Source of the DNA: Coriobacteriales bacterium | GTDB lineage: Bacteria > Actinomycetota > Coriobacteriia > Anaerosomatales > JACRBU01 | Assembly: GCA_016213085.1 (NCBI GenBank) | Contig: JACRBU010000157.1 | Span: 1,065-65,064 of the forward strand | Length of the DNA stretch: 64,000 bases | Direction of reading: 5' to 3' | Shown: positions 22,752 to 59,844 of the stretch, one piece after another | Layout of the letters: each line of letters opens with the position of its first letter | Position numbering within the stretch: position 1 is the first letter of the stretch | Translations under genes and position numbers: made by a program | The notes under the pieces: model-generated | Seen by the model: the letters and a program-made list of their open reading frames with translations, nothing else | The model's database searches: none | What the model was told of the DNA's origin: nothing

Positions 22752-23004
22752 GGTCGCCGTCAAGGCGTCTGTACTGAAGGACCTGAAGCGCCTCGCCCCC
22801 AGGGACCGCGAACGATGCCTCGCCGTCATTGGCGAGCTCGCCGGGCAGCCTCGCCCTCCAGGATGCGAGAAGCTGAGCGCCCAAGAGCATTACCGAGTGC
22901 GTGTGGGAGGCAACCGCATCGTGTACGAGATCCGCGACGCGCAGCTCGTCGTGTGGGTGGTCAAGGTCGGTAACCGGGGAGACGTCTACAGGCGGATGCG
23001 ATGA
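22738..23004 (+). CDS. RelE/ParE-family toxin
   Basis: 88 aa from the ATG at 22738. Contains the typical ...HYRVRVGGNRIVYEIRDAQLVVWVVKVGNRGDVY. Its TGA stop overlaps the uvrC ATG (ATGA). Confidence 0.75.
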   Translation: MATYEVAVKASVLKDLKRLAPRDRERCLAVIGELAGQPRPPGCEKLSAQEHYRVRVGGNRIVYEIRDAQLVVWVVKVGNRGDVYRRMR

Positions 23005-27900: not shown

Positions 27901-28002
27901 GGGTGCGGCATGCTCGTGATCGCACTCACGTGGGAACGCCAACGGCACGTTCTCGTGGAAGCGGGAGGGGCGCTGAAAGCCACGCTCTCCACATGGAGAT
28001 AG
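24940..28002 (+). CDS. Very large polytopic membrane protein of unknown function
   Basis: 1020 aa. A soluble N-terminal region of about 120 aa is followed by an almost continuous series of hydrophobic helices (more than 20 by eye), rich in Ala, Leu, Gly and Val. I recognise no catalytic motif. Confidence 0.7.
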   Translation: MPFFAQGNGGGHRVAPGAEDLQRLQNIDYFLDQLARAVERGDVPMESYEALAPSYLAKREALVSRLYSGPAIAQGPSAAPLATTSTGSADALWVTSWADTERTRPGAVRTSQARPAAKPIQVPWPTVLTVLGAFLVVVAAAIFAVATWNLLATPLKLAVMVALTIGFYVAGDIARRKYDLQVGGVALTAVGSAMLLFDGWIAIDGFDLSGPLPWAILLLVVSSVYWLTEIRLAGRYFGVAGAAAQIGWWWLLGEGLGWPMTWRLAAIACVALAWQIAGRRAARSPSVAEFGESLRLAAPVVAAGAAAGALVALAFNPSLDTAKLVAVAVTSLAAGTVWLDVKVQTVVSQALGSAIQVPAIVALGLALSGDPTWTEIGITAAVGLAWLTLAVYAGGAPFATLGVIALDGAVLFGVGEVSATSSAEGALSVVAATGAFWVFAVVLARRWGSSRVPERARSWVLGLEVGAWLTLGGATAATVGLGLFDYMVAGDIPDAVLPGVVSVAWVASALLRGGLTPGIVASASLLYATWIAAENVEALSDWRYACVGAVAALLVLTADYLARAIRTDVRAFAAVIRILVAIVGVTAAVTAYEGDPVMRTDAVVACVTVALALLASGWFGNAVEGVVAGSFLGLAAIGVFRWGTFSPVDGWGACAVAGGALVMCVAGTATKRAQPLLASATAATASVTATLFVTMSAVALFDHPARDVAPLALAWLAISACWVAASIVLRLEEILALAGLTLFAAGLTAVAVLELPAGVTLAVAGIVAFGLLAPSFTRTYGAEGTSSRSGAALAASAFAGLISVTVLAFASTQTDMGAEWMRFGDNGLAVSLIVLGAWTLAFARAWKSRLAWRVGPLAFVLALWVWLGAADVRSYEAYGVPLAAYLAGLSWDIARRGEPGEAVLTDLGAAAALLVPPILSAWTATDPSVEWLHSAVGFMLGLTAIAGGIALRVRSYFFGGVIAVALIAMWRSSGFLTQWWWIVLGLVGCGMLVIALTWERQRHVLVEAGGALKATLSTWR

Positions 28003-33436: not shown

Positions 33437-34204
33437 ATGGACCGACGCCCGCTCGTCGCAGGCAACTGGAAGATGTACAAGACCTCCGGTGAGGCCGCCG
33501 TTCTCGTGCAGAAGCTCGAGGACTACGCGTCCGGCTGGAGGGACATCGACGTCGTGGTGTGCCCGCCGTTCGTCGATCTGAAGGCCGTCTCGACCGTTAT
33601 CGAGCTCGACGAGGTGCGAATCGCCCTCGGTGCGCAGAACGTGTACTGGGAAGAGGAGGGCGCGTTCACTGGCGAGGTGGCGCCCCGAATGCTCGTGGAG
33701 CTGGGCGTCACGTACTGCATCGTCGGCCATTCGGAACGTCGCGAGTACTTCGGCGAGACCGACGCGGGCGTGAACAAGAAGGTCCATGCGCTGCTAGCCC
33801 ATGACATCACGCCGATCATGTGCTGCGGCGAATCGCTCGAGACCCGCGAAGCGGGGGATACCGATGCCTTCGTGCGCGAACAGGTGCGCAAGGGCCTCGA
33901 CGGCATCACTGCTGAGCAAGCCGGGCGGATCGTCATCGCCTACGAGCCCATCTGGGCGATCGGCACCGGTCGCACGCCAACGCCCGAGATGGCGAATGAC
34001 GTCTGCCGCTCCATTCGAGCGACGGTCGGCGCCATGTTCGGCCAGCCCGCCGCCATCCAGACGCGCATCCTCTATGGCGGTTCGGTAAAGGCCGAGAACG
34101 CCCGGGTGTTCTTCGGCGAGCCCGACATCGACGGTGCGCTCGTCGGCGGCGCGTCACTTGACCCGGAGGGCTTCAGCCGGATCGCGGAAGCGGCCATTGG
34201 ATAG
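33437..34204 (+). CDS. tpiA: Triosephosphate isomerase
   Basis: 255 aa with AGNWKM, GHSERR and AYEPIWAIGTG. Confidence 0.95.
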   Translation: MDRRPLVAGNWKMYKTSGEAAVLVQKLEDYASGWRDIDVVVCPPFVDLKAVSTVIELDEVRIALGAQNVYWEEEGAFTGEVAPRMLVELGVTYCIVGHSERREYFGETDAGVNKKVHALLAHDITPIMCCGESLETREAGDTDAFVREQVRKGLDGITAEQAGRIVIAYEPIWAIGTGRTPTPEMANDVCRSIRATVGAMFGQPAAIQTRILYGGSVKAENARVFFGEPDIDGALVGGASLDPEGFSRIAEAAIG

Positions 34205-34205
34205 C

Positions 34206-35735
34206 ATGCGCAACCTGCCCGCAGCGCTCATCATCCTGGACGGCTTCGGCATGGCCGATGGCGGCACCGGCAACGCCATCGCACGCGCCAACACGCCGAA
34301 CCTCGACAGACTCTTCGCCGAGAACCCCATGACCCTGCTCGAAGCCTCCGGGCTTTCGGTCGGTCTTCCCGAAGGGCAGATGGGCAACAGCGAGGTCGGC
34401 CACTTGAACATCGGTGCGGGACGGGTCGTCTACCAGGAGCTCACGCGCATCAACATGGCTATCGAGGACGGCACCCTGTTCGAGAACCCGGTGCTGATCG
34501 AGGCGATGGACCGCGCGGCAGCGGCCGGCACGGCCGTGCACTTCATGGGCCTGCTCTCGGACGGTGGCGTTCACAGCCATGAGGACCACCTGTTCGCTCT
34601 GGTACGGATGGCGCAAGAGCGCGGTGCCTCGCGCGTCTTCGTGCACGCCATCCTCGACGGCCGTGACGTGCCTCCGACTTCGGGACTCGGGTACGTGGAG
34701 ACCCTCGAGGCACGGATGCGCGAGCTTGGCATCGGCGAGATCGCTACGGTCATGGGACGCTACTGGGCGATGGACCGCGACAACCGCTGGGACCGCGTGC
34801 AGCGGGCCTGGCGGGCGATGGTTCTCGGCGAAGGCGTCCCGGCGGAAGACGCGCCTTCGGCTGTCTCAGCGTCGTACGCCAACGACGTGACCGACGAGTT
34901 CGTCGAGCCCGCGATCGTCGAGCGGGAGGGTTCTCCCATCGCCCGGATGAGCGATGGAGACACCGTCGTATTCTTCAACTTCCGCCCCGATCGTGCGCGC
35001 GAGATCACGAGAGCGCTGGTCGACCCGACGTTCCTCGGCTTCGAGCGGCCGGCGTTCCCGTCACTGGAGTTCGTCTGCCTTACCGAATACGACCCGACCA
35101 TCCCGGCTCCGATCGCGTTCCCGAAGGACCTGCCGAACAACGTCCTCGCCGACGTGCTCGCCGCACACGGATTGCGTCAGCTGCATATCGCGGAGACCGA
35201 GAAGTATGCGCACGTCACCTTCTTCCTGAACGGCGGGGTGGAGACTCCCAAGCAAGGTGAGGAGCGGATTCTCGTTCCGAGCCCGAAGATCCCCACATAC
35301 GATGCCCAGCCGGAGATGAGCGCTCCGAAGGTGACCGAAGAGCTCGTGAACGCGATCGGCCGCGACGCAGCGGACGTCTACATCGTCAACTACGCGAACT
35401 GCGACATGGTCGGCCACACAGGCGATCTCGAGGCGGCGATAGCCGCGGTGGAGGCGGTCGACGCGGGCGTGGGTGCGGTGGTGGAGGCGATCACCGCCAA
35501 AGGGGGAGCGGTTCTCTTGACCGCCGATCACGGCAATGCGGAAGACATGGTCACCGACGAAGGATCGCCCGTGACGGCCCATACGCTCTCGGCAGTCCCG
35601 CTGGTAGTCACGGCCGACGGAGTGACGGCCCTGGCCGACGGCGGGATCCTGGCGGACGTGGCGCCGACACTCCTGGACGTCATCGGCATCGCCCCCCCGA
35701 GCGAATGGACGGGCAGGTCGCTGTTGATATACTAG
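34206..35735 (+). CDS. gpmI: 2,3-bisphosphoglycerate-independent phosphoglycerate mutase
   Basis: ATG at 34206, directly after the tpiA stop. Contains ILDGFG, GNSEVGHLNIGAGR, VNYANCDMVGHTG and TADHGNAE. Confidence 0.93.
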   Translation: MRNLPAALIILDGFGMADGGTGNAIARANTPNLDRLFAENPMTLLEASGLSVGLPEGQMGNSEVGHLNIGAGRVVYQELTRINMAIEDGTLFENPVLIEAMDRAAAAGTAVHFMGLLSDGGVHSHEDHLFALVRMAQERGASRVFVHAILDGRDVPPTSGLGYVETLEARMRELGIGEIATVMGRYWAMDRDNRWDRVQRAWRAMVLGEGVPAEDAPSAVSASYANDVTDEFVEPAIVEREGSPIARMSDGDTVVFFNFRPDRAREITRALVDPTFLGFERPAFPSLEFVCLTEYDPTIPAPIAFPKDLPNNVLADVLAAHGLRQLHIAETEKYAHVTFFLNGGVETPKQGEERILVPSPKIPTYDAQPEMSAPKVTEELVNAIGRDAADVYIVNYANCDMVGHTGDLEAAIAAVEAVDAGVGAVVEAITAKGGAVLLTADHGNAEDMVTDEGSPVTAHTLSAVPLVVTADGVTALADGGILADVAPTLLDVIGIAPPSEWTGRSLLIY

Positions 35736-35763
35736 GTCAGCGGCGGACTGAGCCGCCGCTGAC
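35736..35763 (+). terminator. Perfect 11-bp hairpin immediately after gpmI
   Basis: GTCAGCGGCGG-ACTGAG-CCGCCGCTGAC followed by TTGG. Confidence 0.6.
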
Positions 35764-35892
35764 TTGGCGAATCGAGCAGACGCTGCGCGCAGCTCATTCG
35801 CCAATCGGCGGAAGCCTATGCCAATCGGCACAGCCCGATCCGCCACGGCGTGTGTCTCTGCCGGCTTTGCACCAACGCTGACCTGAGGAGTT

Positions 35893-36144
35893 GTGCACGT
35901 GAACGCGTTCGTCATCCTGTTTGTCATCATCGAGATCATCTCCGCCGCCGGACTGGTGGTCTTCGTTCTCCTGCACTCCGGCCGCGGCGCCGGAGTTTCC
36001 GAGATGTTCGGCGGCGTCATGCCGGCGACCTCGAGCGGAACCGGCATCATCGAGAAGAACCTCGATCGCATCACGATCGCGCTTGCTGTGATCTTTGTCG
36101 TTTCCCTGCTGGTGCTCATGGTCATCTGGCCGTCGGGGATCTAG
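35893..36144 (+). CDS. secG: Preprotein translocase subunit SecG
   Basis: Small two-TM protein containing LLHSGRGAGVSEMFGG. The in-frame GTG at 35899 has better SD spacing and may be the true start. Confidence 0.85.
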   Translation: MHVNAFVILFVIIEIISAAGLVVFVLLHSGRGAGVSEMFGGVMPATSSGTGIIEKNLDRITIALAVIFVVSLLVLMVIWPSGI

Positions 36145-42110: not shown

Positions 42111-42197
42111 GTCGGAGTGGCGGAATGGCAGACGCGCTAGGTTGAGGGCCTAGTGTCCCCTAGGGACGTGTGGGTTCAACTCCCACCTCCGACACCA
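42111..42197 (+). tRNA. tRNA-Leu (anticodon GAG), with encoded CCA
   Basis: Acceptor stem GTCGGAG/CTCCGAC, anticodon stem-loop CTAGG-TTGAGGG-CCTAG, a long variable arm, and T-arm GTGGG-TTCAACT-CCCAC, then A-CCA. Confidence 0.9.
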
Positions 42198-47792: not shown

Positions 47793-48116
47793 ATGAGCAA
47801 AGCGATCGACGTTTCGACCTCGACGTGGGACGCCGAGGTGGGGTCGGCAGACACACCGGTCGTCGTTGATTTCTGGGCACCCTGGTGCGGACCCTGCCGG
47901 ATGGTCGCGCCCGAGCTCGACAAGCTCTCCGGTCGGGTGGGAGACAAGGTCAAGTTCGTGAAGGTGAACATCGACGAGAACCGCGATCTTGCGGTGCGCT
48001 TCGGCGTGATGAGTATCCCGACGATCGCGATGTTCGAGAAGGGAAGCCTCGTCAAGCAAGTGGTCGGGGCGCGAGGCGCCGATGCCCTCGCGAAGGAGTT
48101 CGGCCTGGAGGGGTAG
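47793..48116 (+). CDS. trxA: Thioredoxin
   Basis: 107 aa with WAPWCGPC. Confidence 0.95.
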   Translation: MSKAIDVSTSTWDAEVGSADTPVVVDFWAPWCGPCRMVAPELDKLSGRVGDKVKFVKVNIDENRDLAVRFGVMSIPTIAMFEKGSLVKQVVGARGADALAKEFGLEG

Positions 48117-48220: not shown

Positions 48221-48520
48221 CTACTTCACGCAGGACGAGTACTTGAGGAACACTCGGATCGCCTCGTCGATGACCTCGTCCCGGGTGGTGGCCTCTTCGT
48301 CGATGAGGCATCGCTTCATCGCGTGGCCGATCACATGGAGGCCGACTTGGTTGAGTGCGGACTTCGCGGCCATCACCTGCGTGAGTATCGCGTCGCACTC
48401 CTGCCCGGACTCGATCATCGACTGAAGGCCACGGATCTGACCCTCGAGGCGTCGGAGACGATTGATGATCTTGCGGCGCTCGGCGTCGTCGACGATGGGT
48501 GTGATGCTTTCGGGTGCCAT
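48221..48520 (-). CDS. CsoR/RcnR/CstR-family (DUF156) metal- or thiol-sensing repressor
   Basis: 99 aa with RKIINRLRRLEGQIRGLQSMIE...ECDAILTQVMAAKSALNQVGLHVIGHAMKRCL. Two Cys lie 29 residues apart. Confidence 0.88.
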   Translation of the reverse strand: MAPESITPIVDDAERRKIINRLRRLEGQIRGLQSMIESGQECDAILTQVMAAKSALNQVGLHVIGHAMKRCLIDEEATTRDEVIDEAIRVFLKYSSCVK

Positions 48521-48568
48521 GTGTTGCTCCTGAGCCCGTTGATGTAACGTGATACGGATAGCTTGATG

Positions 48569-48585
48569 ATACCCCCTAGGGGTAT
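48569..48585. promoter_or_regulatory. Perfect inverted repeat ATACCCC-CTA-GGGGTAT in the csoR/CDF divergent region (CsoR-type operator)
   Basis: Seen directly. The G/C-tract palindrome flanked by ATAC/GTAT matches the general form of published CsoR operators. Confidence 0.6.
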
Positions 48586-48587
48586 CA

Positions 48588-49553
48588 GTGACAAACTGGT
48601 GGTGCAGCTTGGGCTACACGCGTTCCATAGGTGAAGATGTCGCATCCGCGCGGATCTCACGGATCCGTCGCATTCTCGCGATCATCCTCGGCCTCAATCT
48701 GATGGTGGCGTTCGCCAAGCTCGGATGGGGCGTTGCCACGGGGTCGAGCGCCATGCAGGCCGACGGCTTCCACTCGCTTTTCGACGGGACGAGCAATGTC
48801 GTAGGGCTCATCGGCATGGGGCTCGCCGCACGCCCTGCCGACAAGGACCACCCCTACGGGCACAGCAAGTACGAGACGTACGCGTCCGCCGCCATCGGAG
48901 CCATGCTGGTCTTCGCCGCGTTCAGGATCGGATCCGAAGCGATCCAGAAGCTCAGCGGCGATGCGCCTCCCCCCACGGTGGACCGAATCTCGTTCGCGGT
49001 GATGTTCGTCACGCTCGCGGTGAACCTGGTCATCACCGTCTGGGAGCGCAGGATCGGCAAGAAACTGAAGAGCGAGATCCTCGTCGCCGATGCGAGCCAC
49101 ACGGCGTCCGATGCCTTCGTGAGCGTCGGAGTCATCATCTCCCTGGTGTTCGTCCAGCTCGGCTACCCAAAGGCCGACCCGATCGTGGCCCTGCTGGTTT
49201 CGGGCGCGATCATCTACACCGCCTGGGGCGTCTTCAAGCAAGCGGGGGAGACCCTGTCCGACCGGTACCGCATCGAGCCGTCAGCGATCTGCGACGCTGC
49301 TTCCGGAGTCGACGGCGTGCTGGGGTGTCACCACGTGAGAACGCGCGGTTCTGAGGCGGAGGTCTACGTCGACCTGCACATCCAGGTGGATCCCGGGCAG
49401 ACCGTGGCGGAGGGCCACGACATCGCCGAGCGAGCTGAGCGCGCGATCTGCGACGCCTTCCCCAACGTGGCCGACGTGATCGTGCACCTCGAGCCGATGG
49501 ATACATACCAGGCGGCCAAGACCGCCCGAGAAGCCGACGCGGGCCTGGCGTAG
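48588..49553 (+). CDS. Cation diffusion facilitator (CDF) metal efflux protein
   Basis: Motifs SSAMQADGFHSLFD and HTASDAFVS, six TM helices and a C-terminal cytoplasmic domain. The GTG at 48588 abuts the operator and has no SD, so the in-frame TTG at 48609 is a more plausible start. Confidence 0.88.
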   Translation: MTNWWCSLGYTRSIGEDVASARISRIRRILAIILGLNLMVAFAKLGWGVATGSSAMQADGFHSLFDGTSNVVGLIGMGLAARPADKDHPYGHSKYETYASAAIGAMLVFAAFRIGSEAIQKLSGDAPPPTVDRISFAVMFVTLAVNLVITVWERRIGKKLKSEILVADASHTASDAFVSVGVIISLVFVQLGYPKADPIVALLVSGAIIYTAWGVFKQAGETLSDRYRIEPSAICDAASGVDGVLGCHHVRTRGSEAEVYVDLHIQVDPGQTVAEGHDIAERAERAICDAFPNVADVIVHLEPMDTYQAAKTAREADAGLA

Positions 49554-49652
49554 CGCCCTCTCGGCGGCCTCGCTGGGACGCGTGAGCTGGCCGGTGGGTG
49601 GTATAATTCTTGCTGTGCAAGCCGTCCGCTTCGGGTGCGAGGAGGGGTCACA

Positions 49653-51050
49653 GTGGAACTGCAACAGCGCCCCGAACTGCGCCAGAAAGTCACGCTCTCT
49701 CCCCAGGTCTACCAGGGCCTGAGTATCCTGGCGATGCCCATCGCCGATCTGCAGCAGATGATCGAAGTCGAGATGCTCGAGAACCCTGTTCTCGAGGTCG
49801 ACGAAACCGAACTCGAGCCGGTCGAAGGCGAGGAAGCCCCGGAAGAGGCTGGCGAGGACGACCGCGAGTGGGACGAGTGGCTCGAGATGTACGAGGATCT
49901 CGAGCAGATCGAGACGACGGGTCCACGCGACCCGAACGCCGAGGAGCCCAACACCGAGGAGTTCGTCGGCGGCGTACAGACCTTCGATGACTACCTTCTC
50001 GGCCAGGTCGGCCTTCTCGATGTCGAGCCAGAAGTCCAGCGCGCCGCCGCTGCGATCATCGGCTCCCTCGACAGCGACGGCTTCTTCGTCGGCTCTCTCG
50101 ACGAGATCGCTCGGGTCGCCGGCGTGACGTCGGTCCAGGCTGCCGAGGGGCTCGAGGTCGTGCAGCAACTCGACCCGCCCGGCGTCGGCGCTCGCGACCT
50201 CGTCGAGGCCCTGTGCCTGCAGATGGAATCGCTCGGCCTCGACGAGCCGATGCTTCTGCGCATCGTCCGAGATCACCTCGACGACGTCGCCGCCAACCAC
50301 TACCGCAAGGTCGCGAGGGCGCTGCGCCTCGACGAGGGCGAGGTGCGACGCCTTGTGCAGGTGCTCAAGAGCCTCAACCCGCGGCCGGCCGGTGCGTTCT
50401 CCCCGGGTCCTTCCCCGGGCTACATCGTCCCTGACGTGACGGTCAGGCGCTTCGAAGGTGAGGACTGGCTTCTCATCCCGAACAACGAGTCGCTCCCAAC
50501 ACTGCGGGTGAGTCCCCGGTATCGGGCGATGCTGAAGAAGGGCGCCACGACCGACGACGAAACCAAGCGCTACCTGAAGGACAAGATCCGTTCGGCGGAG
50601 AGCTTCATCCGCAATGTCGATCGGCGCAAGGACACGGTCTCTCGCATCACGCAGATCATCCTCGAGGTGCAGCGTGACTTCTTCGAGGACGGGAAGGGCC
50701 CGCTGCGTCCGCTTCGTCTCGAGGACGTGGCCGTTGAGCTCGGCGTGCACCTGTCGACCGTTTCTCGCGGCGTGACCGGCAAGTACATGGCGACGCCCTA
50801 CGGCCTCTTCGAGCTGAAGCACTTCTTCAGCGGCGGGTACCGTACGGCGCAGGGCATGGACGTGGCGGCGACCAGCATCAAGCAGCGTCTGCGTGAACTC
50901 GTGAAGGAAGAGGATGCCGTCAAGCCGCTTTCGGACCAGAAGCTCGCAGAGCTGCTCTCCGAAGAGGGCGTGACAGTCGCCCGGCGCACCGTTGCGAAGT
51001 ACCGCGAGGAACTCGGCATTGAGCCCAGTTGGGCAAGGCGCCGCCGATGA
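49653..51050 (+). CDS. rpoN: RNA polymerase sigma-54 factor
   Basis: GTG at 49653 preceded by GGAGGGG. Gln/Leu-rich region I (LRQKVTLSPQVYQGLSIL), an acidic region II, a core-binding region, an HTH and the RpoN box ARRTVAKYREELGI. TGgTATAAT lies at 49599-49607. Confidence 0.92.
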   Translation: MELQQRPELRQKVTLSPQVYQGLSILAMPIADLQQMIEVEMLENPVLEVDETELEPVEGEEAPEEAGEDDREWDEWLEMYEDLEQIETTGPRDPNAEEPNTEEFVGGVQTFDDYLLGQVGLLDVEPEVQRAAAAIIGSLDSDGFFVGSLDEIARVAGVTSVQAAEGLEVVQQLDPPGVGARDLVEALCLQMESLGLDEPMLLRIVRDHLDDVAANHYRKVARALRLDEGEVRRLVQVLKSLNPRPAGAFSPGPSPGYIVPDVTVRRFEGEDWLLIPNNESLPTLRVSPRYRAMLKKGATTDDETKRYLKDKIRSAESFIRNVDRRKDTVSRITQIILEVQRDFFEDGKGPLRPLRLEDVAVELGVHLSTVSRGVTGKYMATPYGLFELKHFFSGGYRTAQGMDVAATSIKQRLRELVKEEDAVKPLSDQKLAELLSEEGVTVARRTVAKYREELGIEPSWARRRR

Positions 51051-52570
51051 GTCCCGATTCGGTCGAGCGAGCCCCTCGCGGCGAGCCTTCCGACGAGCGC
51101 AGAAGACGACGGGCTCGTGACGTTCGCTCGGTGACGATCATCGCGGTCCTGCTGCTCTCGGTGACGATGATCAACATCTTCACGAGCACGAGGGGCCAGG
51201 CAACGTGGCTGAGCGTCTTCTACCGGCAGCTCTACTACATTCCGATCGTGTATGCAGCATTCGTGTTCGGCAAGCGTGGTGGTCTCCTGGCGGCGCTCGC
51301 TGCGGCCATCCCGTTTGGGATCCACGCTCAGGTCTCGCTCGGCGGGCTTCTCAATCCCCCCTACGAGAACTCGATAGAGATCGCCATGTACTTCGCCGCC
51401 GGGCTGCTCTTCGGCATGCTCCGAGACATGGAGAACACCAAGGCGGCTGATTCGCGCGCGGTGTCACAGCAGCTCGAGGAGGCCTACAAGAAGCTCGAAG
51501 AGCGGGCGATCCAACTCATCAACATCCAGGACTACATGCAGTCGATACTGCGTTCTATCACGTCAGGCGTGTTGACGGTCGGACCGGACGGGTCGGTCGC
51601 GACGGCGAATCCCGCCGCCGAGCGGATGCTCGCGATGTCCGAATACGAGATGGTCCCCAAACCCATCGGCACGCTCTTCCGTGAGGATGGCGGCATCGCG
51701 ACCGACGTGTCGAAGGTCCTTGCCGGACGCCTCCCGTTGACACTGCGGGAGATAACGCTCGTGACGAGCTCGGGCAAGGAGGTGCACGCGCAGGTCTCTG
51801 TGTCTCGCATGCGCGCCGTTGGCGGGAAGATCCTCGGGGCGGTCGTGACCCTTGAGGACGTCTCCGACATCCGCGCACTCACAGACCAGCTCATCCGCGC
51901 GGACCGCTTGGCAGCCATGGGCGAACTGACCGCGGGTGTCGCCCACGAAGTGCGCAACCCCCTGGGGGTTATCAGGGCCTCGGTCCAGCTGCTTGAGGAC
52001 GCCGAATACAATAGCGAGCGGATCCACGAGGCGGCCGAGGTCATCAAGCAGGAGATAGATCGTCTCGACCGCGTCATCAAGGCGCTGCTGGACTTCGGCA
52101 GGCCGAGCAAGCCTACGCTCGTACGCACGAACGTCGAAGAGGTGCTGCAGGACGTCGAGTTGTTCACGAACCGATTCGCGAAGCAGTCCGACGTGCGCAT
52201 CATCGAGGAGTTCGCCGGCAACCTTCCGGACGTGGTCGCCGACCCCGATCAGATGAAGCAAGTGTTCCTCAACCTCGTCACCAACGCCGTCCAGGCGATG
52301 GAGGACACCGGGGGAGGGGAGATCATGCTTCGCACCCGGTCCAACGGTGACTTCGTGACGGTCGAGGTTGCCGACAACGGCCCGGGGATTCTACAGGCTG
52401 ACGTCGGGAAGGTCTTCGATCCGTTCTTCACGAAGCGAGCGGAAGGCACGGGGCTCGGCCTGACGATCGTCCATCGAATCATCGATGAGCACGACGGGCA
52501 TATCGAACTGGACAGCTCACCGCAGGGGACTACGTTCACGGTCTCTCTGCCGGTTGCGCTCGAAGACTAG
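51047..52570 (+). CDS. Membrane sensor histidine kinase (multi-TM N-domain, PAS, HisKA, HATPase)
   Basis: The ATG at 51047 overlaps the rpoN stop (ATGA). H-box AHEVRNPLG, with DNGPGI and GTGLGL boxes. Confidence 0.9.
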   Translation: MSPDSVERAPRGEPSDERRRRRARDVRSVTIIAVLLLSVTMINIFTSTRGQATWLSVFYRQLYYIPIVYAAFVFGKRGGLLAALAAAIPFGIHAQVSLGGLLNPPYENSIEIAMYFAAGLLFGMLRDMENTKAADSRAVSQQLEEAYKKLEERAIQLINIQDYMQSILRSITSGVLTVGPDGSVATANPAAERMLAMSEYEMVPKPIGTLFREDGGIATDVSKVLAGRLPLTLREITLVTSSGKEVHAQVSVSRMRAVGGKILGAVVTLEDVSDIRALTDQLIRADRLAAMGELTAGVAHEVRNPLGVIRASVQLLEDAEYNSERIHEAAEVIKQEIDRLDRVIKALLDFGRPSKPTLVRTNVEEVLQDVELFTNRFAKQSDVRIIEEFAGNLPDVVADPDQMKQVFLNLVTNAVQAMEDTGGGEIMLRTRSNGDFVTVEVADNGPGILQADVGKVFDPFFTKRAEGTGLGLTIVHRIIDEHDGHIELDSSPQGTTFTVSLPVALED

Positions 52571-52581
52571 GGGAGGTACGG

Positions 52582-53931
52582 ATGTCGAAGCGCGTCCTTA
52601 TCGTGGACGACGAGAAGAACATGCGGTGGGTGCTGGGCCAGGCGCTCTCGGGCGAGGGTTTCGAGGTCGTCGACGCGGCGGACGGCAAAGGCGCCCTCGC
52701 CTCCGTCTCCGACCAGGCGCCCGACATCATGATCCTCGATCACCGCATGCCCGAACCGGACGGGATGGAGGTCCTGCGCCGGGTGCGCGGGAAGGGCCAG
52801 ACGTTCCCGATCATCATGCTCACGGCTCACGGCAACGTCGCCCAAGCGGTCGAGGCGATGAAGGCTGGCGCGAACGAGTACCTCACGAAGCCATTCGACC
52901 TGGAGGAACTCAAGCTCGCGATCGACAAGGCCCTCCAGTACTCCGATCTGGCCAACGAGGTCGAGAGACTTCGCCAGGAGCTCGACCGGGAGTACGACGT
53001 CGAGGGCATCGTCGCGTCGGACCAGCGGATGATCGAGGTCATCGAGACCGTTCGGAAGGTGGCGCCCACGAACGCCACGGCGATCATCTACGGTGAGTCC
53101 GGCACGGGCAAGGAGCTGATCGCCCGCGCTCTGCACAACCTCTCGGACCGGGCCAACAAGCCGTTCGTGTCCGTGAGCGCTGGAGCGCTGCCCGACACCC
53201 TTCTCGAGAGCGAGCTCTTCGGCTTCGAAAAGGGCGCGTTCACCGGCGCGGTGACCGCCAAACCGGGTCGCTTCGAGATGGCCAACGGCGGCACGCTGTT
53301 CCTTGACGAGATCGGCGACATCTCTACGGCCACGCAAGTGAAGCTCCTTCGAGTCCTGCAGGAGCGGACGTTCGAGCGCCTCGGCGGCACTCGCACGATC
53401 GACATCGACGTCCGGGTGGTAGCAGCCACGAATCAGGACCTCCAACAGCTCATCGCCGATGGCGGTTTCCGCGAGGACCTCTACTACCGTCTCAACGTCG
53501 TGCCGATCACGCTGCCGCCTCTCAGGCAGCGTTCAGGTGACATCCCGCTCCTCGTCGCTCACTTTCTCGAGAAGTACAACGCCGGGAGCATGCGGATCAC
53601 CCCCGAGGCCATGGAAGCGCTCGTGACCTACCAGTGGCCGGGGAATATCCGCGAACTCGAGAACAGCATCGAGCGGATCGTGATCTTGACCCACCACGAC
53701 GAGATCGGATTGGATGACCTCCCCGCCGAGGTACGAGCGGGCATGTCACCCACCCAGCGGATGCCCTCCGGATTCCAGCTTCCCGAGGATGGAGTGGATC
53801 TCGAGGAGGTTGAGCTGGACCTGGTGCGTCAGGCCCTCGACAGGACCGGCGGTAGCGCCCCGAAGGCGGCCAAGCTACTGGGGCTGACGGCGAAGACTCT
53901 GGAGGCGCGTATGGCGCGTCTCGGGCTCTAG
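52582..53931 (+). CDS. Sigma-54-dependent response regulator (NtrC family: REC, AAA+, Fis-type HTH)
   Basis: REC domain (ILIVDDE...ILDHRMP), Walker A GESGTGKE, the GAFTGA loop (EKGAFTGAV) and a C-terminal HTH (AAKLLGLTAKTLEARM). Confidence 0.93.
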   Translation: MSKRVLIVDDEKNMRWVLGQALSGEGFEVVDAADGKGALASVSDQAPDIMILDHRMPEPDGMEVLRRVRGKGQTFPIIMLTAHGNVAQAVEAMKAGANEYLTKPFDLEELKLAIDKALQYSDLANEVERLRQELDREYDVEGIVASDQRMIEVIETVRKVAPTNATAIIYGESGTGKELIARALHNLSDRANKPFVSVSAGALPDTLLESELFGFEKGAFTGAVTAKPGRFEMANGGTLFLDEIGDISTATQVKLLRVLQERTFERLGGTRTIDIDVRVVAATNQDLQQLIADGGFREDLYYRLNVVPITLPPLRQRSGDIPLLVAHFLEKYNAGSMRITPEAMEALVTYQWPGNIRELENSIERIVILTHHDEIGLDDLPAEVRAGMSPTQRMPSGFQLPEDGVDLEEVELDLVRQALDRTGGSAPKAAKLLGLTAKTLEARMARLGL

Positions 53932-53961: not shown

Positions 53962-53977
53962 TGGCACATGGATTGCA
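53962..53977 (+). promoter_or_regulatory. Sigma-54 promoter TGGCAC-ATGGA-TTGCA (consensus -24/-12)
   Basis: Exact match to TGGCAC-N5-TTGCA, 30 nt after the EBP stop and 42 nt before the GTG at 54019. GGAG lies 8 nt before the start. Confidence 0.75.
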
Positions 53978-54018: not shown

Positions 54019-54354
54019 GTGGCCAGAAAGCCGCTGCTCAGAATCGCTGCAGCAGCCCTTGGCGGGCTTGCTGTCGCCACGGTGCTCCTCGCTATCACCC
54101 TCGTCGTCAACGCGGGCGGCGGTTTCTCGGGAACGACCGCTGCCACGCCGCTTGGCTGGACGATCCCGCTCATCGCGGGGGTTCTCGTCGGCGGCCTCGC
54201 GTGGCTGCTTCTCTCGGACCGACCGGCGCGCGGTGGGAGGGAGAACCCTCCCACGTCGATCGCGTGCGCATCATGCGGCAAGGCCTGCCTCGACTCGTGG
54301 CGCCTGTGCCCCTTCTGCGGCACGCTGCTCCGACAGTCCAGCGGCGACCAGTAG
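54019..54354 (+). CDS. Small two-TM membrane protein with a C-terminal zinc-ribbon (CxxC...CxxC)
   Basis: 111 aa with two hydrophobic helices followed by CASCGKACLDSWRLCPFCG. Confidence 0.6.
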   Translation: MARKPLLRIAAAALGGLAVATVLLAITLVVNAGGGFSGTTAATPLGWTIPLIAGVLVGGLAWLLLSDRPARGGRENPPTSIACASCGKACLDSWRLCPFCGTLLRQSSGDQ

Positions 54355-54401
54355 GGCCAGCCGAGATCTTCTCATTCATCGCGCTGAATCAGGCGCACCT
54401 C

Positions 54402-54417
54402 TGGCACGTACTTCGCA
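54402..54417 (+). promoter_or_regulatory. Second sigma-54 promoter TGGCAC-GTACT-TCGCA
   Basis: GG-N10-GC is preserved, with one mismatch in the -12 element. It shares the extended CCTCTGGCAC with the first promoter. It lies 62 nt before the GTG at 54479, which is preceded by GAGGA. Confidence 0.6.
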
Positions 54418-54478
54418 GAAACCGACGTGTACGCGGTCGCGTCCGTGCGCCCGCTGGTGCTCGGAACTTGAGGACTGA

Positions 54479-54925
54479 GTGAACGTCACGAAGGACAGCA
54501 GCACTGAATCGGCCTATCGCGAGGGACTCGGCTATGGCGGGCAGTCCGTCGCGGTAGCGGTCGCTTCCGCGCTCCTGCTGTTCACCGTGGTCGGCCTCGT
54601 CGCGTCGCGGACGTCCGTCCGCCTCGGTTCCGCCTCGTGGGGGACGTCGCGCGGAGTCGCCATCGGTGTGCCGGCCTCGCAGGCACGGGCCCTCGAGCCT
54701 GTCGTTCAGACGATCGATGCCCCTCAACTCAACGGCGACAGTCTCAACGGCAGCTTCATGCTCACGGTCCCCGCACGCCGAGAGGTGCTCGTCGACATCG
54801 GTGTACCGGTGTCGTGTCCCGGCGGCGGGAAGTCCACCGCGATTCTCATCCCAGCTCTCGAGCCCGGTCATCACGTCCTCAACGTCGGCCTTCACGAGAT
54901 TGTTGTCACCGCGGTGGAGGAGTAG
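54479..54925 (+). CDS. Hypothetical N-terminally anchored extracytoplasmic protein
   Basis: 148 aa with a TM helix (VAVAVASALLLFTVVGLVA) followed by a beta-rich domain. No domain I recognise. Confidence 0.45.
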   Translation: MNVTKDSSTESAYREGLGYGGQSVAVAVASALLLFTVVGLVASRTSVRLGSASWGTSRGVAIGVPASQARALEPVVQTIDAPQLNGDSLNGSFMLTVPARREVLVDIGVPVSCPGGGKSTAILIPALEPGHHVLNVGLHEIVVTAVEE

Positions 54926-54932
54926 CCCGAAA

Positions 54933-54948
54933 ATACCGTATGGGGTAT
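54933..54948. promoter_or_regulatory. ATACC-N4-GGGGTAT inverted repeat overlapping a TATACT -10 upstream of ccdA; candidate CsoR-family operator
   Basis: ATACCGTATGGGGTAT, with TATACT at 54946-54951. A second partial site, GATACCCCCT at 54964-54973, is identical to the left arm of the 48569 operator. Confidence 0.35.
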
Positions 54949-54988
54949 ACTGAGACCGCCCTGGATACCCCCTCGGAATGCGAGTGAC

Positions 54989-55804: not shown

Positions 55805-58800
55805 ATGAGCCAGGAGCGGCGTCGTGGTCGCACGATAGCGACCGACATCGTCCAGGTGACGCTTGTGGTCGGCATCGTGATAGCCGTTGCCGCCGCGATC
55901 GTCGGGGTTACCGGCGCATCTAGGCTGGCCAGCGCGGAAGTGGTGTCGCAGCAGCGCGCGGGCATGCATCGCGTTGAAGACACCGCCGAGGTGCAGATCG
56001 CCGCGGCGGGTGTGATCGTCGAGCAAACCGCGGGCGCCGTGGGCGCCGCGAAGGACGTGAGCAGCGCCGCACAGCTCACCAAGTCGCTTGCAGGCTCCGA
56101 CGGAGCTCTCGAGTCTCTCACCCTCCTGGACGCGAACGGCAGGCCCCTGGGGTCCCGGGCCTCGTCGAACACCGAGAGGATTCCCCGCTCGATACTCGAG
56201 AGTTTCGCGCGTGCGTCTGCAAGTATCGTCGTTCAGGACACAGGCACGGACGGGACGCCGAATGTCTGGATCGCGCGCACGTCGATCATACGGTCCGGAG
56301 ACCCGGTCCTCGTGCTCGGCAAGGTCGACACTTCCTTCCTGACGAGCCTTGTCAGGGAGGCGGCTGCCGAGCAGCCCGGAAGCGCAGTACTGGTGATCGG
56401 ACCCGGCGGGCACATCGAGGCTGCCGCCGGTCCCGAACTCGATCTCGGCCGGGCGAAATGGACGCGCAGCGGTCGTGACGGCGTCGTGACCGCCAGGGCG
56501 ACGAACGGAACCCCGATGTCGGGGCTGTACACCCCCATCCACGGCATACCTGGGCTGAACTGGCGTGTCGCGCTCGTCCAGCCCCGCTCCGCGGTGGTTT
56601 CCGCGACCTTCCAGGCGGTCGGGCCCTCGATCGGCGTGCTCATACTCGGCGGACTCGTCGCACTCGCGATCGCCTGGGTCATCTCCGCGCAGCTCTCCGA
56701 CCCGCTGCGCTCGCTCGAGGAAGCCGCGTATCGTGCCGCCGAGGGGTCGTACGTGAAGCCGCTCAAGGCGGATCGCGACGACGAGGTCGGTCGGCTGGCC
56801 GATGCCTTCAACGCGGTCGCGATGAGACTCAACGCGCTACACGATCTCTCGCAGCTGCTGGCGAGCAGCACCCACCTCGATCAGGTGCTCGACGGCATCC
56901 TATCGGCGATGGAACACATCATCGGACCGGGTATCACGGCGATCTACCTGCTGGATGACTCGCGAGACCTTCTGAAGCCCGTGAGGGCCCACGGCGCGCA
57001 GCTTGACGTGCTGCCCTGCATGCCGGCGAGGGGAGAGGGATGGATCATCGAAGCGCTTTCGGCCATCGAGCCGCGGGTCGTGACGGGGCTTCCTGGCAGG
57101 CTTCGTGAGATTCTCCCGGGGCTCGCGCCCGAGCAGGCCCGCGAAGCGATCGCCATCCCGCTCGTGAGCGGCTACGAGGCGATCGGCGTGATCGTATACG
57201 TCTCCGAGTCGGAACGCGGGTTCACCGAAGCCGAGACCGAGATGCTGCGCACGTTCGCCGCCCAGGCCGCCGTGGCCGTCAACAACTCGAGGATGTTCGC
57301 GGAGGAGGGTGAGTCCCGGGAGATCGCGGAGACCCTCCAGGCCGTGGCCGAGGACCTGGTGGGCGCTGGCAACCTCGGCGAGGCGCTCGAGTCGGTCGTC
57401 GTGCGATTGCGCGATCTCTTCGGGGCGCGTGAGGTCCAGATCGCCTTCGTGGACCGGGCGTCCCTCGGGATGCCACCTTCGTTCGATCCGGCGCGCGAGG
57501 ATGCGCTCGTCACGATGGCGATCCGGACGCTGGCGCTCGGCGAGGCCGACTCGCCGACGACCATCCCGAAGGGTGTCGACGCCGAAGCCGATGCGCTCCT
57601 CGACCGCCATGGCGCATCGGAGCTGTTGGTCGTTCCGACGGGCATGTCCAGCGGACACGGCGCCGTGCTTGTGGTCGTGCCCGGTCCCGGGGGCGTGAGG
57701 CCGAGGGACATCGAGCTCGCGGACGCGGTGTCGGACGAGATCGCTCTCGCACTCGACAACGCCTACTTCTACGAGCGCGCGATCACGCGCGCCTCGAACC
57801 TCGAGACGATCTTCAGGATCAGCCAGGCGCTGAGCTCCTCGCTGCAGTTCAACATCGTGCTCAACCGCGTGCTCGACGTGGTCCAGAAGATCTTCTCTGC
57901 GGACGCGGTGTGGTTGCTCACGTACGATCGCCCGCGGCGCGTGCTTCGCACGGAGATGGCCCGCGGCACCGTGTCCTCGGAGATCCTCGATCTGTCCCTT
58001 CGGCCGGGTGAGGACGTCTTCGGATTCGTCTACGAGAGCGGCGAACCAGGCACGTTCCGTTCGATCGCACCGGACAGCGCCGGCGTACAGAGGATCGCGT
58101 ACTCCCTCGGGCTGAGGGCGATGCTGGCCGTCCCGCTTCTCGCTCGAGGTCGCTCTATCGGAGTGCTGGCGATCCTGTCGTCCGAGCAGAACGCGTTCTC
58201 CGACGAGGATCTCAGCGTGCTTCAGACCTTCGCGGCCCAAGCGTCGCTGGCGATCGACACCGCACGCCTCTACAGCCACGAGCACGAAGTCGCGACGATC
58301 CTCCAGCGCAGCATCACCCCCGAGGCGCTTCCGGAACTCGCCGAAGTGGAGACGGGCTCGGTCTACGTGCCGGTGGGGCCGGACAGCGAGATCGGCGGCG
58401 ACTACTACGACATGATGCGCGCCCCGGACGGGTCGATCGTCTTCGCCATCGGCGACGTGGTCGGCAAGGGCATCATCGCCGCCACCAAGACATCGATGAT
58501 CAAGTACTCGGTGCGGGCGCTTGTCGCTGCGGGGCTCGGTCCCGCGTTGGTCCTGCGAGAAGTCAACCGCATGGTCGCCGAGTCCGGAGACGCGGGCGAC
58601 ATCGTCACGCTGTGGCTCGGCCAATACGATTCGACCACCCGTCGGCTGAGATGGGCGAGTGGAGGACATCCCCCGGGGCTGAGCCTGCGGGCGCAGGGTG
58701 GAATCGAGCCGCTCGTGGCCACCGGGCCTCTCTTGGGAGTCATGCCCGATGTCGACTACGATGAGGAGTCTGTGTCTGTCGACCCCGGGGACACGGTCCT

Positions 58801-59071
58801 CCTCTACACCGACGGTGTCACCGAGGCCCGCGCTGGCTCGAAGTTCTTCGGGGAGGAGCAGGTACGCCGTACGCTCGAGGCGGGCGGGACGTGCGAGGAT
58901 ATCGTTCAACGTTTGATGGCTGCTGTCCGATTGTTTGCAGAAGGAGACCTGCGCGACGACGTTGCCATCGTGGCTGTACGTTTCACCGGTCGGGTCTCGA
59001 ATACAGCCGAAATCGGGACGGTGGACTCGACCGTACGAGGGGAATCTTCAGAAGCATGGCCTTCGACATAG
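55805..59071 (+). CDS. Membrane-bound sensor phosphatase: extracytoplasmic domain, HAMP, multiple GAF domains, PP2C/SpoIIE
   Basis: 1088 aa with two TM helices flanking a region of about 250 aa. HAMP (DEVGRLADAFNAVAMRL), GAF-like repeats, and a C-terminal SpoIIE domain (GGDYYD, GDVVGKG, YTDGVTEA). Confidence 0.88.
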   Translation: MSQERRRGRTIATDIVQVTLVVGIVIAVAAAIVGVTGASRLASAEVVSQQRAGMHRVEDTAEVQIAAAGVIVEQTAGAVGAAKDVSSAAQLTKSLAGSDGALESLTLLDANGRPLGSRASSNTERIPRSILESFARASASIVVQDTGTDGTPNVWIARTSIIRSGDPVLVLGKVDTSFLTSLVREAAAEQPGSAVLVIGPGGHIEAAAGPELDLGRAKWTRSGRDGVVTARATNGTPMSGLYTPIHGIPGLNWRVALVQPRSAVVSATFQAVGPSIGVLILGGLVALAIAWVISAQLSDPLRSLEEAAYRAAEGSYVKPLKADRDDEVGRLADAFNAVAMRLNALHDLSQLLASSTHLDQVLDGILSAMEHIIGPGITAIYLLDDSRDLLKPVRAHGAQLDVLPCMPARGEGWIIEALSAIEPRVVTGLPGRLREILPGLAPEQAREAIAIPLVSGYEAIGVIVYVSESERGFTEAETEMLRTFAAQAAVAVNNSRMFAEEGESREIAETLQAVAEDLVGAGNLGEALESVVVRLRDLFGAREVQIAFVDRASLGMPPSFDPAREDALVTMAIRTLALGEADSPTTIPKGVDAEADALLDRHGASELLVVPTGMSSGHGAVLVVVPGPGGVRPRDIELADAVSDEIALALDNAYFYERAITRASNLETIFRISQALSSSLQFNIVLNRVLDVVQKIFSADAVWLLTYDRPRRVLRTEMARGTVSSEILDLSLRPGEDVFGFVYESGEPGTFRSIAPDSAGVQRIAYSLGLRAMLAVPLLARGRSIGVLAILSSEQNAFSDEDLSVLQTFAAQASLAIDTARLYSHEHEVATILQRSITPEALPELAEVETGSVYVPVGPDSEIGGDYYDMMRAPDGSIVFAIGDVVGKGIIAATKTSMIKYSVRALVAAGLGPALVLREVNRMVAESGDAGDIVTLWLGQYDSTTRRLRWASGGHPPGLSLRAQGGIEPLVATGPLLGVMPDVDYDEESVSVDPGDTVLLYTDGVTEARAGSKFFGEEQVRRTLEAGGTCEDIVQRLMAAVRLFAEGDLRDDVAIVAVRFTGRVSNTAEIGTVDSTVRGESSEAWPST

Positions 59072-59844
59072 ACTTCGAAATCGGCTCGGACACGTGCGTG
59101 GCTCGGCTTGCGGGTGATATCGACATCGCGGTCGTGCCGGCGTTGCGGGCAGACATGGACGCTGCCCTCGAGGCGGGCTGCCGAAGCGTCGTGCTGGACT
59201 TGAGCGATGTCGCCTACGCCGACAGCTCGGCTCTTGGGCTTCTGGTCTGGCTCGATCATCGCCTCAGGCCGGTCGGCGGCCGGCTCGTGCGGGCCGGAGC
59301 CAACGATGACGTCGCCCGCATCCTCGAGCTCTCAGGGCTTGTCCAGGTAGCCGCATCGGTTCAGATGAGTTCGTCTGTGGCCTCGGCGCTCGAAGGGCTG
59401 CAACTTCCCGAGCTCGCGCATGAACCGCTCTGGAGCAAGAGCATCGACATGGTCGCCGCGGTCGAGAACCTCGGATCGGTGCGCGAGGAGGTCGTCGCGA
59501 TCCTCGGCTCCCTCGGCTTTGCCGACTCGGCGCTCTTCGACATCAAGGTCGCGCTCGGAGAGGCGCTGGCGAACGCTGTCCGCCATGGGGCCCCTGCCGA
59601 TGGCTCCGGCGAGGTCCGTGTCGAAGTCGTCGCGTATGACGACCGGATCGTGCTCGAGGTCATGGACAACGGGATCGGCTTCAACGGGCAGCACGCCGGC
59701 AGTGACGACGTCTATGCACCCTCGGGGCGCGGCATCATGTTCATGCGCGCGTTGATGGATCGGGTCGAGTTCGACCACTCGCCGCTCGGCGGCACCAAGG
59801 TGCGGCTCGTCAAGCACCGTCCTGTCGCCGGCGCGCCTCGCTGA
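59056..59844 (+). CDS. Fusion of a STAS anti-sigma-antagonist domain and an RsbW-like HATPase anti-sigma kinase domain
   Basis: The ATG at 59056 overlaps the phosphatase gene by 16 nt. The STAS domain (VLDLSDVAYADSSALGLLV) is followed by the kinase domain (ALGEALANAVRHG...DNGIGF...GRGIMFMRALMD). Confidence 0.8.
   Translation: MAFDIDFEIGSDTCVARLAGDIDIAVVPALRADMDAALEAGCRSVVLDLSDVAYADSSALGLLVWLDHRLRPVGGRLVRAGANDDVARILELSGLVQVAASVQMSSSVASALEGLQLPELAHEPLWSKSIDMVAAVENLGSVREEVVAILGSLGFADSALFDIKVALGEALANAVRHGAPADGSGEVRVEVVAYDDRIVLEVMDNGIGFNGQHAGSDDVYAPSGRGIMFMRALMDRVEFDHSPLGGTKVRLVKHRPVAGAPR

Follow-up and report, generated by a model that had tools for sequence, protein, structure and literature searches.

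Within a 64-kb stretch of DNA from a Coriobacteriales bacterium (GenBank assembly GCA_016213085.1, contig JACRBU010000157.1, forward strand, positions 1,065 to 65,064; referred to as the window in the following), we found a gene for the sigma factor sigma-54, rpoN, which forms one tightly packed operon with the genes for a histidine kinase and for an activator of the NtrC class. Comparison with related genomes shows this operon to be bracketed by two -24/-12 elements, P1 before it and P2 behind it, which their conservation marks as selected. We consider it probable that these parts constitute a functional, self-contained sigma-54 cassette, which would be inherited vertically in a large clade that is labelled as Coriobacteriia and resembles OPB41/Anaerosomatales, an order within that class.

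The phylum of this clade, the Actinomycetota, has been described as devoid of such systems. An early survey states that Actinobacteria and Cyanobacteria "lack the Sigma-54 system" (Francke 2011, PMC3162934), and a survey from 2025 reports Actinomycetota to be devoid of functional RpoN and proposes that promoters are harder to tell apart at a high GC content (PMC12316311). A preliminary description of this DNA, made from the sequence, had pointed to the rarity of a sigma-54 module in the phylum, and these surveys bear it out. The more general statement that the phylum is without sigma-54 holds with one exception: the supplement of the 2025 survey lists Eggerthella guodeyinii HF-1101, one of 15 Coriobacteriia, with two rpoN genes of AID-CBD-DBD architecture, which go undiscussed in the main text (PMC12316311). 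E. guodeyinii likewise belongs to the Coriobacteriia, but is a gut isolate of the Eggerthellaceae. The paper on the first cultured OPB41/Anaerosomatales strains, including its supplement, does not mention sigma-54.

The operon and its two flanking elements are arranged as follows.

49599..49614, plus strand: P1, TGGTATAATTCTTGCT, a sigma-54-type -24/-12 element (GG-N10-GC), 38 nucleotides upstream of the rpoN start
49653..51050, plus strand: rpoN, sigma-54 of 465 residues, with a GTG start after AGGAGG; identified by Pfam, TIGR02395 and alignment
51047..52570, plus strand: membrane-anchored PAS histidine kinase of 507 residues, with an ATG start; PAS, HisKA and HATPase_c domains
52582..53931, plus strand: NtrC-family response regulator of 449 residues; REC, AAA+ with GAFTGA, and HTH_8 domains
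53962..53977, plus strand: P2, TGGCACATGGATTGCA, a sigma-54 promoter that matches the consensus perfectly, 31 nucleotides past the activator stop

All three genes are present at full length, in the order and on the strand that had been claimed for them. RpoN contains the three domains expected of a complete sigma-54 (AID, PF00309, 3.8e-12; CBD, PF04963, 4.5e-49; DBD, PF04552, 2e-56), scores 402.5 bits against the NCBIfam rpoN equivalog TIGR02395 and thereby passes its cutoff of 277, and aligns over residues 8-463 to the solved E. coli and Klebsiella sigma-54 holoenzyme, covering region I, the helix-turn-helix and the RpoN box. The translation includes the RpoN box ARRTVAKYR, as had been described, and the motif HLSTVSR; the protein is thus not truncated. 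An NCBI protein (P0001) from a metagenome-assembled genome matches it with 100% identity and is annotated as 'RNA polymerase factor sigma-54 [Coriobacteriales bacterium]'.

The ATG of the kinase gene at 51047 overlaps the TGA stop codon of rpoN, so that the ATGA coupling seen earlier is real, and the activator gene starts 11 bases past the kinase stop, behind GGGGAGG. In the kinase, a PAS domain is combined with HisKA (PF00512, 3.7e-15) and HATPase_c (PF02518, 2.8e-27), in agreement with its original assignment, and the translation has the H-box HEVRNPL as well as DNGPG and GTGLGL. Its membrane anchor consists of four transmembrane segments with hardly any external loops, and the PAS domain is cytoplasmic. 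The activator is built from a receiver domain (REC, PF00072), the Sigma54_activat domain (PF00158, 3.2e-70), AAA_lid_14 (PF25601) and HTH_8 (PF02954); its translation displays the motifs ILDHRMPEPDG, GESGTGKE, LFLDEIG and GAFTGA, the last of which is intact, as had been stated.

By family, the three proteins are ordinary members of the RpoN, HisKA kinase and NtrC-class activator groups. Among the NCBIfam models, the activator remains under every equivalog cutoff (AtoC, 492 bits vs 714; NtrC, 443 vs 559; ZraR, 400 vs 760), and so does the kinase (AtoS, 345 vs 646; ZraS, 201 vs 479; NtrB, NF008293, 173.3 vs 240). The pair therefore belongs to this broad family and is orthologous to none of AtoSC, ZraSR and NtrBC. 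The nearest solved structures of the activator are the Aquifex-type NtrC-family chains 1ny5 and 4l4u (E ~1e-102).

To place these genes in context, the scan for relatives considered one genome per GTDB species and returned 38 species-representative genomes that encode an RpoN with 67-82% identity to that of the window and carry the locus in full synteny. An independent metagenome sample comprised 80 contigs found via the protein encoded downstream of P2, 77 of them with enough upstream sequence. The window represents about 3% of a genome of roughly 2 Mb, and all related loci (given L numbers below) sample the same region.

P2 is the only match to TGGCAC-N5-TTGCW without a mismatch in the window. 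Together with a further element, P3, and the putative target genes of both, it lies just beyond position 53931, where the preliminary description had ended. A TGGCAY-N5-TTGCA sequence is found 7-53 nucleotides after the activator gene in 33 genome loci, and in the base matrix of these 33 species TGGCA and TTGCA are invariant, while the spacer is free. The exceptions are L032, in which the promoter is displaced by an insertion, and L030, which has neither the promoter nor the first target gene. In the metagenome sample, P2 precedes the homolog of this first gene, sORF1, in 77 of 77 loci. A relaxed pattern, TGGYAYN5TYGCW, has three matches in the window, namely P1, P2 and P3, against an expectation of 0.19, a number that none of 100 shuffled sequences reached. 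All three are intergenic, on the plus strand and confined to a 4.8-kb locus, and in 783 kb of related DNA, searched on both strands, the pattern occurs almost exclusively at the positions of P1, P2 and P3.

P1 is conserved as well. Of the 37 loci with upstream sequence, 34 have TGGTAY-N5-TTGCW at a distance of 24-60 nucleotides ahead of rpoN; it is missing from L017, L018 and L024. The matrix of these 34 sites has invariant G, G, T and A followed by invariant T, T, G and C, separated by a variable spacer. The same place had earlier been read as an extended -10 promoter of the sigma-70 type (TGgTATAAT) that drives the operon. This string, TGGTATAAT, does occupy positions 49599-49607 and constitutes the first nine bases of P1; what is invariant across relatives, however, is TGGTA...TTGC with GG-N10-GC spacing and not the -10 hexamer, whose putative sixth base is T in just 24 of 34 sites. 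In distant relatives, a TGGTACG.. sequence is accompanied by a separate -35/-10 pair (GTTAGG...CATAAT) that ends 6-7 nucleotides upstream of P1, and in the outgroup locus L043 (see below) TATACT is followed by TGGCACGTAGCGTGCT ahead of rpoN. P1 thus appears to be a conserved -24/-12 element that adjoins or overlaps a -10 sequence of the sigma-70 type, with the two overlapping in this window, where TGgTATAAT may serve as a basal promoter. Since TGgTATAAT is the front half of the conserved -24/-12 element, sigma-54 probably regulates the operon that encodes it.

Two further observations concern this leader region. Most relatives hold a gene for an EamA-family transporter of about 322 residues in the gap between the preceding cation efflux (CDF) gene and rpoN (e.g. 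L001, 8944-9912; L020, 8918-9898); the gap in the window (49553-49653) is without it, and P1 lies just 45 nucleotides past the CDF stop codon. A possible GC-rich hairpin in the stretch from P1 to the ribosome-binding site, which seemed conserved on inspection, was considered as well, and was no more stable than in shuffled sequences (mean z = -0.08, 34 leaders).

The genes behind P2 and on the near side of rpoN, with the third promoter-like element, are listed here.

54019..54354, plus strand: sORF1, 111 residues, two predicted transmembrane helices and a C-terminal zinc ribbon; first gene behind P2
54402..54417, plus strand: P3, TGGCACGTACTTCGCA, a further promoter of the sigma-54 type; its -12 element is TCGC, and it departs from the consensus at one base
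54479..54925, plus strand: sORF2, 148 residues, an N-terminal transmembrane helix and an all-beta C-terminal domain; behind P3
54989..55717, plus strand: ccdA-like thiol-disulfide transporter (Pfam DsbD_TM)
47793-48116, plus strand: thioredoxin (Pfam); position kept in relatives
48221-48520, minus strand: metal repressor of the CsoR family (Pfam); position kept in relatives
48588-49553, plus strand: CDF cation efflux protein (Pfam); position kept in relatives

sORF1 follows P2 in nearly all loci. Its zinc ribbon, CxxC-x8-WRxCPxCG, is cytoplasmic and has weak Pfam matches to Zn_Ribbon_1 and DZR; in the alignment, C83, C86, C97, P98, C100 and G101, and hence all four cysteines, are invariant. 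The gene after sORF1 encodes a CopZ-like HMA protein of 74 residues (GMHCxSC) in 34 of the genome loci and in almost every metagenome locus, and several loci have membrane proteins with a Cupredoxin_1 domain at the same position. sORF2, which is unique to the window, occupies the place of this HMA gene with or without its cupredoxin companion. It has no match in Pfam or NCBIfam and no homolog in the related loci; an hhalign comparison with a set of cupredoxins gave a weak match (probability 7%), and a single-sequence AlphaFold model of low confidence (pLDDT, the predicted local distance difference test, 53) shows a helix followed by beta strands. The ccdA gene is kept at its position in about 31 genome loci and in most metagenome loci, and a TATACT sequence in the 63-nucleotide gap before it resembles a -10 hexamer.

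P3 has equivalents of the form TGGCAY-N5-TCGCR at the same position in L001, L003, L007, L036, L015, L085 and L092, where they precede the HMA gene and that for a Cupredoxin_1 membrane protein. L015 goes furthest, as its P3 precedes genes for HMA, cupredoxin and an 877-residue P1B ATPase of the CopA type (two GMTCASC, CPC, DKTGT). Judging from this gene content, the role of the system is most likely a response to metal (copper-type) or thiol stress at the cell envelope.

Some other features of this neighborhood deserve mention. L015 has a 5-kb insertion after sORF1 and before P3 (14736-19625) with a 430-residue membrane protein that ends in a cupredoxin-like domain, and L057, L089 and L092 show apparently similar expansions. 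L054 lacks the HMA gene, as does the window. In the divergent intergenic region between csoR and the CDF gene, a sigma-70-like promoter (TTGTCA-17-TATCAT, 10 of 12 matches, 48566-48594, minus strand) faces csoR. Downstream, a partner-switching module (55805-59844) consists of a 1088-residue HAMP-GAF-GAF-PP2C (SpoIIE) phosphatase and a 317-residue fusion of a STAS domain with an RsbW-like kinase; its position is also kept in relatives.

With regard to the host, the actinobacterial origin suggested in the preliminary description agrees with the Coriobacteriales label of the identical NCBI protein and with the titles of the 38 syntenic genomes. Sixteen are named as Coriobacteriia, Coriobacteriaceae or Anaerosomatales (one being an Anaerosomatales metagenome-assembled genome) and another 13 as Actinomycetota, Actinobacteria or Actinomycetes, so that 29 of 38 carry the label of an Actinomycetota subgroup. 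The differently labelled genomes share one 20-kb synteny and therefore represent a single lineage. It is a cosmopolitan, uncultured clade of high GC content from sediment, aquifer and wetland. The GC content of the window is about 66%, and cultured Anaerosomatales (OPB41) have 2-Mb genomes with 66.6-67.7% GC. The gene order that had been cited as actinobacterial is found for the most part: the window has amt-glnK-amt-glnK-glnD, and uvrA...uvrC followed by a gene for a 1020-residue membrane protein and by rapZ-yvcK-whiA-gap-pgk-tpiA. secG (35893-36144), in contrast, does not directly follow tpiA, as gpmI (34134-35735) intervenes. Both amt-glnK-glnD and a whiA gene with gap-pgk-tpiA directly after it are actinobacterial arrangements. 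Taken together, the submitters' labels and the gene order make a placement of the host in the Actinomycetota (Coriobacteriia) well supported.

Several details of the wider window may be recorded in this connection. The gap-pgk-tpiA-gpmI-secG cluster (its last part at 34134-36144) mixes firmicute and actinobacterial layouts of glycolytic genes. The 1020-residue membrane protein between uvrC and rapZ (24940-28002) has the SCO7613 C-terminal domain as its sole family match (NF047321, 53 bits vs a cutoff of 45); this family is named after a Streptomyces protein, which gives mild support to an actinobacterial affiliation. The two tandem amt-glnK pairs and glnD occupy 12885-19042 on the minus strand, and the upstream amt (17345-19042) has an N-terminal extension of about 160 residues. 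No -24/-12 site precedes amt-glnK-glnD in the window, and these nitrogen genes are therefore probably not sigma-54-dependent here. Between uvrA and uvrC, a ParE-toxin-like open reading frame (22654-23004) and a small overlapping one upstream (22473-22751) may form a type II toxin-antitoxin pair. A 693-residue P-type ATPase without a detectable HMA domain is encoded near the window start (3448-5529). The window has a single tRNA gene, tRNA-Leu(GAG) (42111-42197), and no rRNA or ribosomal protein genes are found within the 64 kb.

The preliminary description had left open whether rpoN was acquired horizontally or retained vertically. Within the clade, the cassette is, as far as comparison of the loci can tell, vertically inherited, because the synteny is invariant, the divergence of RpoN tracks that of its neighbors and the base composition is flat; the origin of the clade's cassette is a separate matter. 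All 38 genomes have an identical gene order between the radical-SAM/aminotransferase genes and the PP2C phosphatase gene, with rpoN in between. The identity values of RpoN relative to the window are correlated with those of neighboring proteins, with Spearman coefficients of 0.68 for the aminotransferase, 0.75 for the CDF protein, 0.67 for the PP2C phosphatase and 0.90 for the STAS-kinase fusion. The GC content of the sigma-54 locus is 0.64-0.65, compared with 0.64-0.69 in its surroundings. These same three lines of evidence reject a recent horizontal transfer.

Beyond the clade, relatives become distant at once. In a library of 1.84 billion representative proteins, clustered at 50% identity, the entire clade collapses to one full-length RpoN representative, and the next matches have at most 43% identity, with scores dropping from 727 to 382 bits. 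Two of these serve as outgroups, L041 (1750-2764 and 7602-11073) and L043 (1012-4016): both have an RpoN of 43% identity and overlapping rpoN-kinase(-activator) genes, on unclassified metagenome contigs of 63-71% GC. L041 also carries a sigma-54 promoter, TGGCACACTTCTTGCT, followed by a sORF1 homolog and a Cupredoxin_1 protein, 6 kb upstream. Other matches near 40% identity stand alone or lie in classical lptB-rpoN-hpf contexts. The taxon names in the cluster look-ups of RpoN matches were one Bacillota and one Acetobacteraceae metagenome-assembled genome and unclassified 'bacterium' entries. The LigA protein encoded beside rpoN in L043 has no more than 55% identity to anything, with Chloroflexota (Dehalococcoidia) the commonest among its matches, next to Acidobacteria and Firmicutes. 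As the outgroups share the operon layout at 43% identity, and L041 the target as well, the four-part cassette is old.

Parts of this arrangement resemble known systems. The closest in logic is ZraS/ZraR-zraP of E. coli, in which a kinase/activator operon lies behind a sigma-54 promoter and activates itself, next to a small envelope-related target and in a metal setting. The activators share their architecture (REC, AAA+ with GAFTGA, Fis-type helix-turn-helix), and ZraR and ZraS rank high among the NCBIfam and PDB matches; yet the scores here are far under the cutoffs, the kinase lacks a periplasmic sensor domain, a transmembrane zinc-ribbon protein takes the place of ZraP as the target, and rpoN is part of the operon. 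AtoS/AtoC of E. coli and NtrC1/NtrC4 of Aquifex aeolicus provide the best family (345 and 492 bits) and structure matches and have the same domain order. The AtoS and AtoC scores, however, are below the cutoffs of 646 and 714, the proteins are not orthologs, and no acetoacetate genes are nearby.

As for rpoN itself, the prxS-rpoN2 operon of Rhizobium etli and Mesorhizobium loti likewise has rpoN behind a -24/-12 promoter, so that sigma-54 governs the synthesis of itself or its paralog; this promoter depends on NifA, and a weak independent promoter starts the loop, whereas rpoN of R. leguminosarum is under negative autoregulation (PMC3538637). The prxS-rpoN2 operon occurs in Proteobacteria that possess a second, housekeeping rpoN and encode NifA elsewhere, in contrast to the single operon described here. 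In Cereibacter sphaeroides, the RpoN3-AprX-xrpA system couples a sigma-54 paralog and one cognate activator to a small dedicated target set (PMC11999139). RpoN3 differs in being one of four RpoN paralogs, in an alphaproteobacterium. Finally, Borrelia (Hk2-Rrp2-RpoN) and Chlamydia (CtcB-CtcC-sigma-54) use one two-component activator for a small regulon; to our knowledge, the genes of these systems are not in one operon, and the hosts are diderms with reduced genomes. Each of the two has a single sigma-54 activator (Francke 2011, PMC3162934). What is distinctive in the present case is that sigma factor, sensor and activator are encoded in one operon with an adjoining target, that the first target is a zinc-ribbon protein, and that the host phylum has been reported to lack the system.

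These comparisons suggest how the cassette may work. Basal transcription of the operon would start from the -10 sequence of the sigma-70 type, which overlaps P1 here and is part of the separate -35/-10 pair in distant relatives, or result from read-through from the CDF gene. The kinase would sense a membrane, redox or metal-linked cue and phosphorylate the receiver domain of the activator. The activator would then hexamerize and, through its GAFTGA loops and ATP hydrolysis, open the closed complex of sigma-54 at P2 and at the weaker P3. The output would be the zinc-ribbon membrane protein and sORF2, possibly also CcdA; in relatives, it would include the CopZ-like chaperone and membrane proteins resembling cupredoxins, joined in L015 by the CopA P1B-ATPase. 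P1 would allow sigma-54 to regulate its own operon, either by positive feedback, as in prxS-rpoN2, or by repression through occupancy of the overlapping sigma-70 promoter, as in rpoN of R. leguminosarum. In its strictest form, this model casts sigma-54 as the dedicated, autoregulated output of one two-component system, a portable four-part cassette akin to extracytoplasmic function (ECF) sigma factor systems, with a copper/thiol envelope-stress regulon. We put this form forward tentatively, and with equal caution the view, which belongs to it, that membrane zinc-ribbon proteins of the sORF1 type have not been described before.

A number of observations weigh against our interpretation of a functional, self-contained Coriobacteriia cassette, and they are best considered together with the alternatives to which they lend support. 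The placement of the host draws on submitters' labels and gene order, and the titles of eight among the 38 relatives read 'uncultured Eubacteriales' (a single assembly series from one project); one more has no label. UvrA, UvrB and Pgk do not discriminate, as their scores against Geobacillus or Thermotoga structures equal or slightly exceed those against Mycobacterium ones (e.g. UvrA, 1343 bits for the Geobacillus and 1300 for the M. tuberculosis structure in the PDB). gpmI follows tpiA as in Firmicutes, and no WhiB gene was found in the sampled DNA, i.e. the window and the related loci. The host could accordingly be a high-GC member of the Bacillota, or of another phylum in which rpoN is routine, and the module would be taxonomically ordinary. 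We regard this as very unlikely: the 29 Actinomycetota-type labels come from many independent submitters, genomes with either kind of label are fully syntenic and have about 80% RpoN identity to the window, amt-glnK-glnD and whiA-gap-pgk-tpiA are actinobacterial arrangements, and GC content and habitat fit cultured Anaerosomatales. Similarly, the use of the promoters is read from their conservation, and P1 always has a T where P2 and the consensus have a C after GG. In the window P1 contains a textbook extended -10, and near relatives, which keep TGGTATGAT, TATACT or TATATT at this position, likewise have a P1 that doubles as a good TGnTATAAT-like extended -10. The equivalent of P1 in the outgroup L041, TGGTAGAAT, 20 nucleotides before the start codon, has no usable -12 element, and P1 is possibly purely a sigma-70 promoter in some lineages. 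Moreover, the system logically requires a sigma-54-independent promoter to start. The operon might consequently be driven simply by a sigma-70 extended -10, with an unrelated TTGC and no autoregulation by sigma-54. This appears improbable given that TTGC occurs at the exact GG-N10-GC spacing in 34 of 34 sites with a less constant hexamer, that distant relatives and L043 have the -24/-12 element next to separate -10 sequences, and that the same genomes use TGGCAY-N5-TTGCA at P2.

The weakest link of the model is the missing binding site of the activator. Palindromic half-site counts upstream of P1 and P2 did not reveal one, no consistent k-mer is common to the upstream regions of P1 and P2, and synonymous sites show no constraint over the final 150 codons of the activator gene, compared among 56 distinct sequences. 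A palindrome in this gene, GAGGTCGAGCTCGACCTC (coding for EVELDL), was examined as a candidate site and is explained by amino-acid conservation. The metal theme has its own difficulties: the HMA gene, its main carrier, is absent from the window (54355-54988) although nearly all of about 110 relatives have it (e.g. L005, 14753-14974), sORF2 cannot be assigned in its stead, and the kinase shows no obvious domain for sensing metals outside the cytoplasm. Furthermore, given the small part of the genome covered by the window, further activators and promoters may exist. It could therefore be that RpoN is a general sigma factor for many activators and promoters elsewhere and that its linkage to this two-component system is incidental, the more so as the majority of bacteria with sigma-54 possess several activators (Francke 2011, PMC3162934). 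We find this doubtful, in view of the overlapping rpoN-kinase-activator linkage in every member of the clade and in an outgroup of 43% identity with the same target, of the lack of a second activator within 10 kb on either side in 36 loci, and of the lack of a -24/-12 site before amt-glnK-glnD in the window. A stronger contender, albeit one to which we would still give less than even weight, is that the cassette reached the ancestor of the clade as a complete unit by ancient lateral transfer and is not a relic of an actinobacterial sigma-54. Cultured Actinomycetota are overwhelmingly without rpoN, with one of 15 KEGG Coriobacteriia having it; the nearest relatives carry the cassette on unclassified high-GC contigs, in one case beside a LigA that best matches Dehalococcoidia/Chloroflexota; and a self-sufficient cassette is easily transferred. 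Against such a transfer stand the lack of a donor above 43% identity among the 1.84 billion representative proteins, the inconspicuous GC content of the locus together with its vertical inheritance within the clade, and the lack of mobile-element genes in the flanks.

Our findings move the known boundary of sigma-54, against the generalizations of 2011 and 2025, and an intact sigma-54 with consensus promoters at 66% GC undercuts the GC-content argument of the more recent survey. They do so as an extension of known biology and not as a new principle, given that the parts are classical and that the proteins are already annotated automatically as sigma-54 in public records. With sigma factor, sensor, activator, self-promoter and target within 5.5 kb, the locus represents a minimal natural sigma-54 circuit, which is suited to working out which genes it controls, how its feedback operates and what the zinc-ribbon membrane protein does. 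Cultured Anaerosomatales may offer experimental access to it, provided that the locus is present in them. If sigma-54 is indeed the dedicated output of this one two-component system, the cassette would give the Actinomycetota their first functional sigma-54 system.

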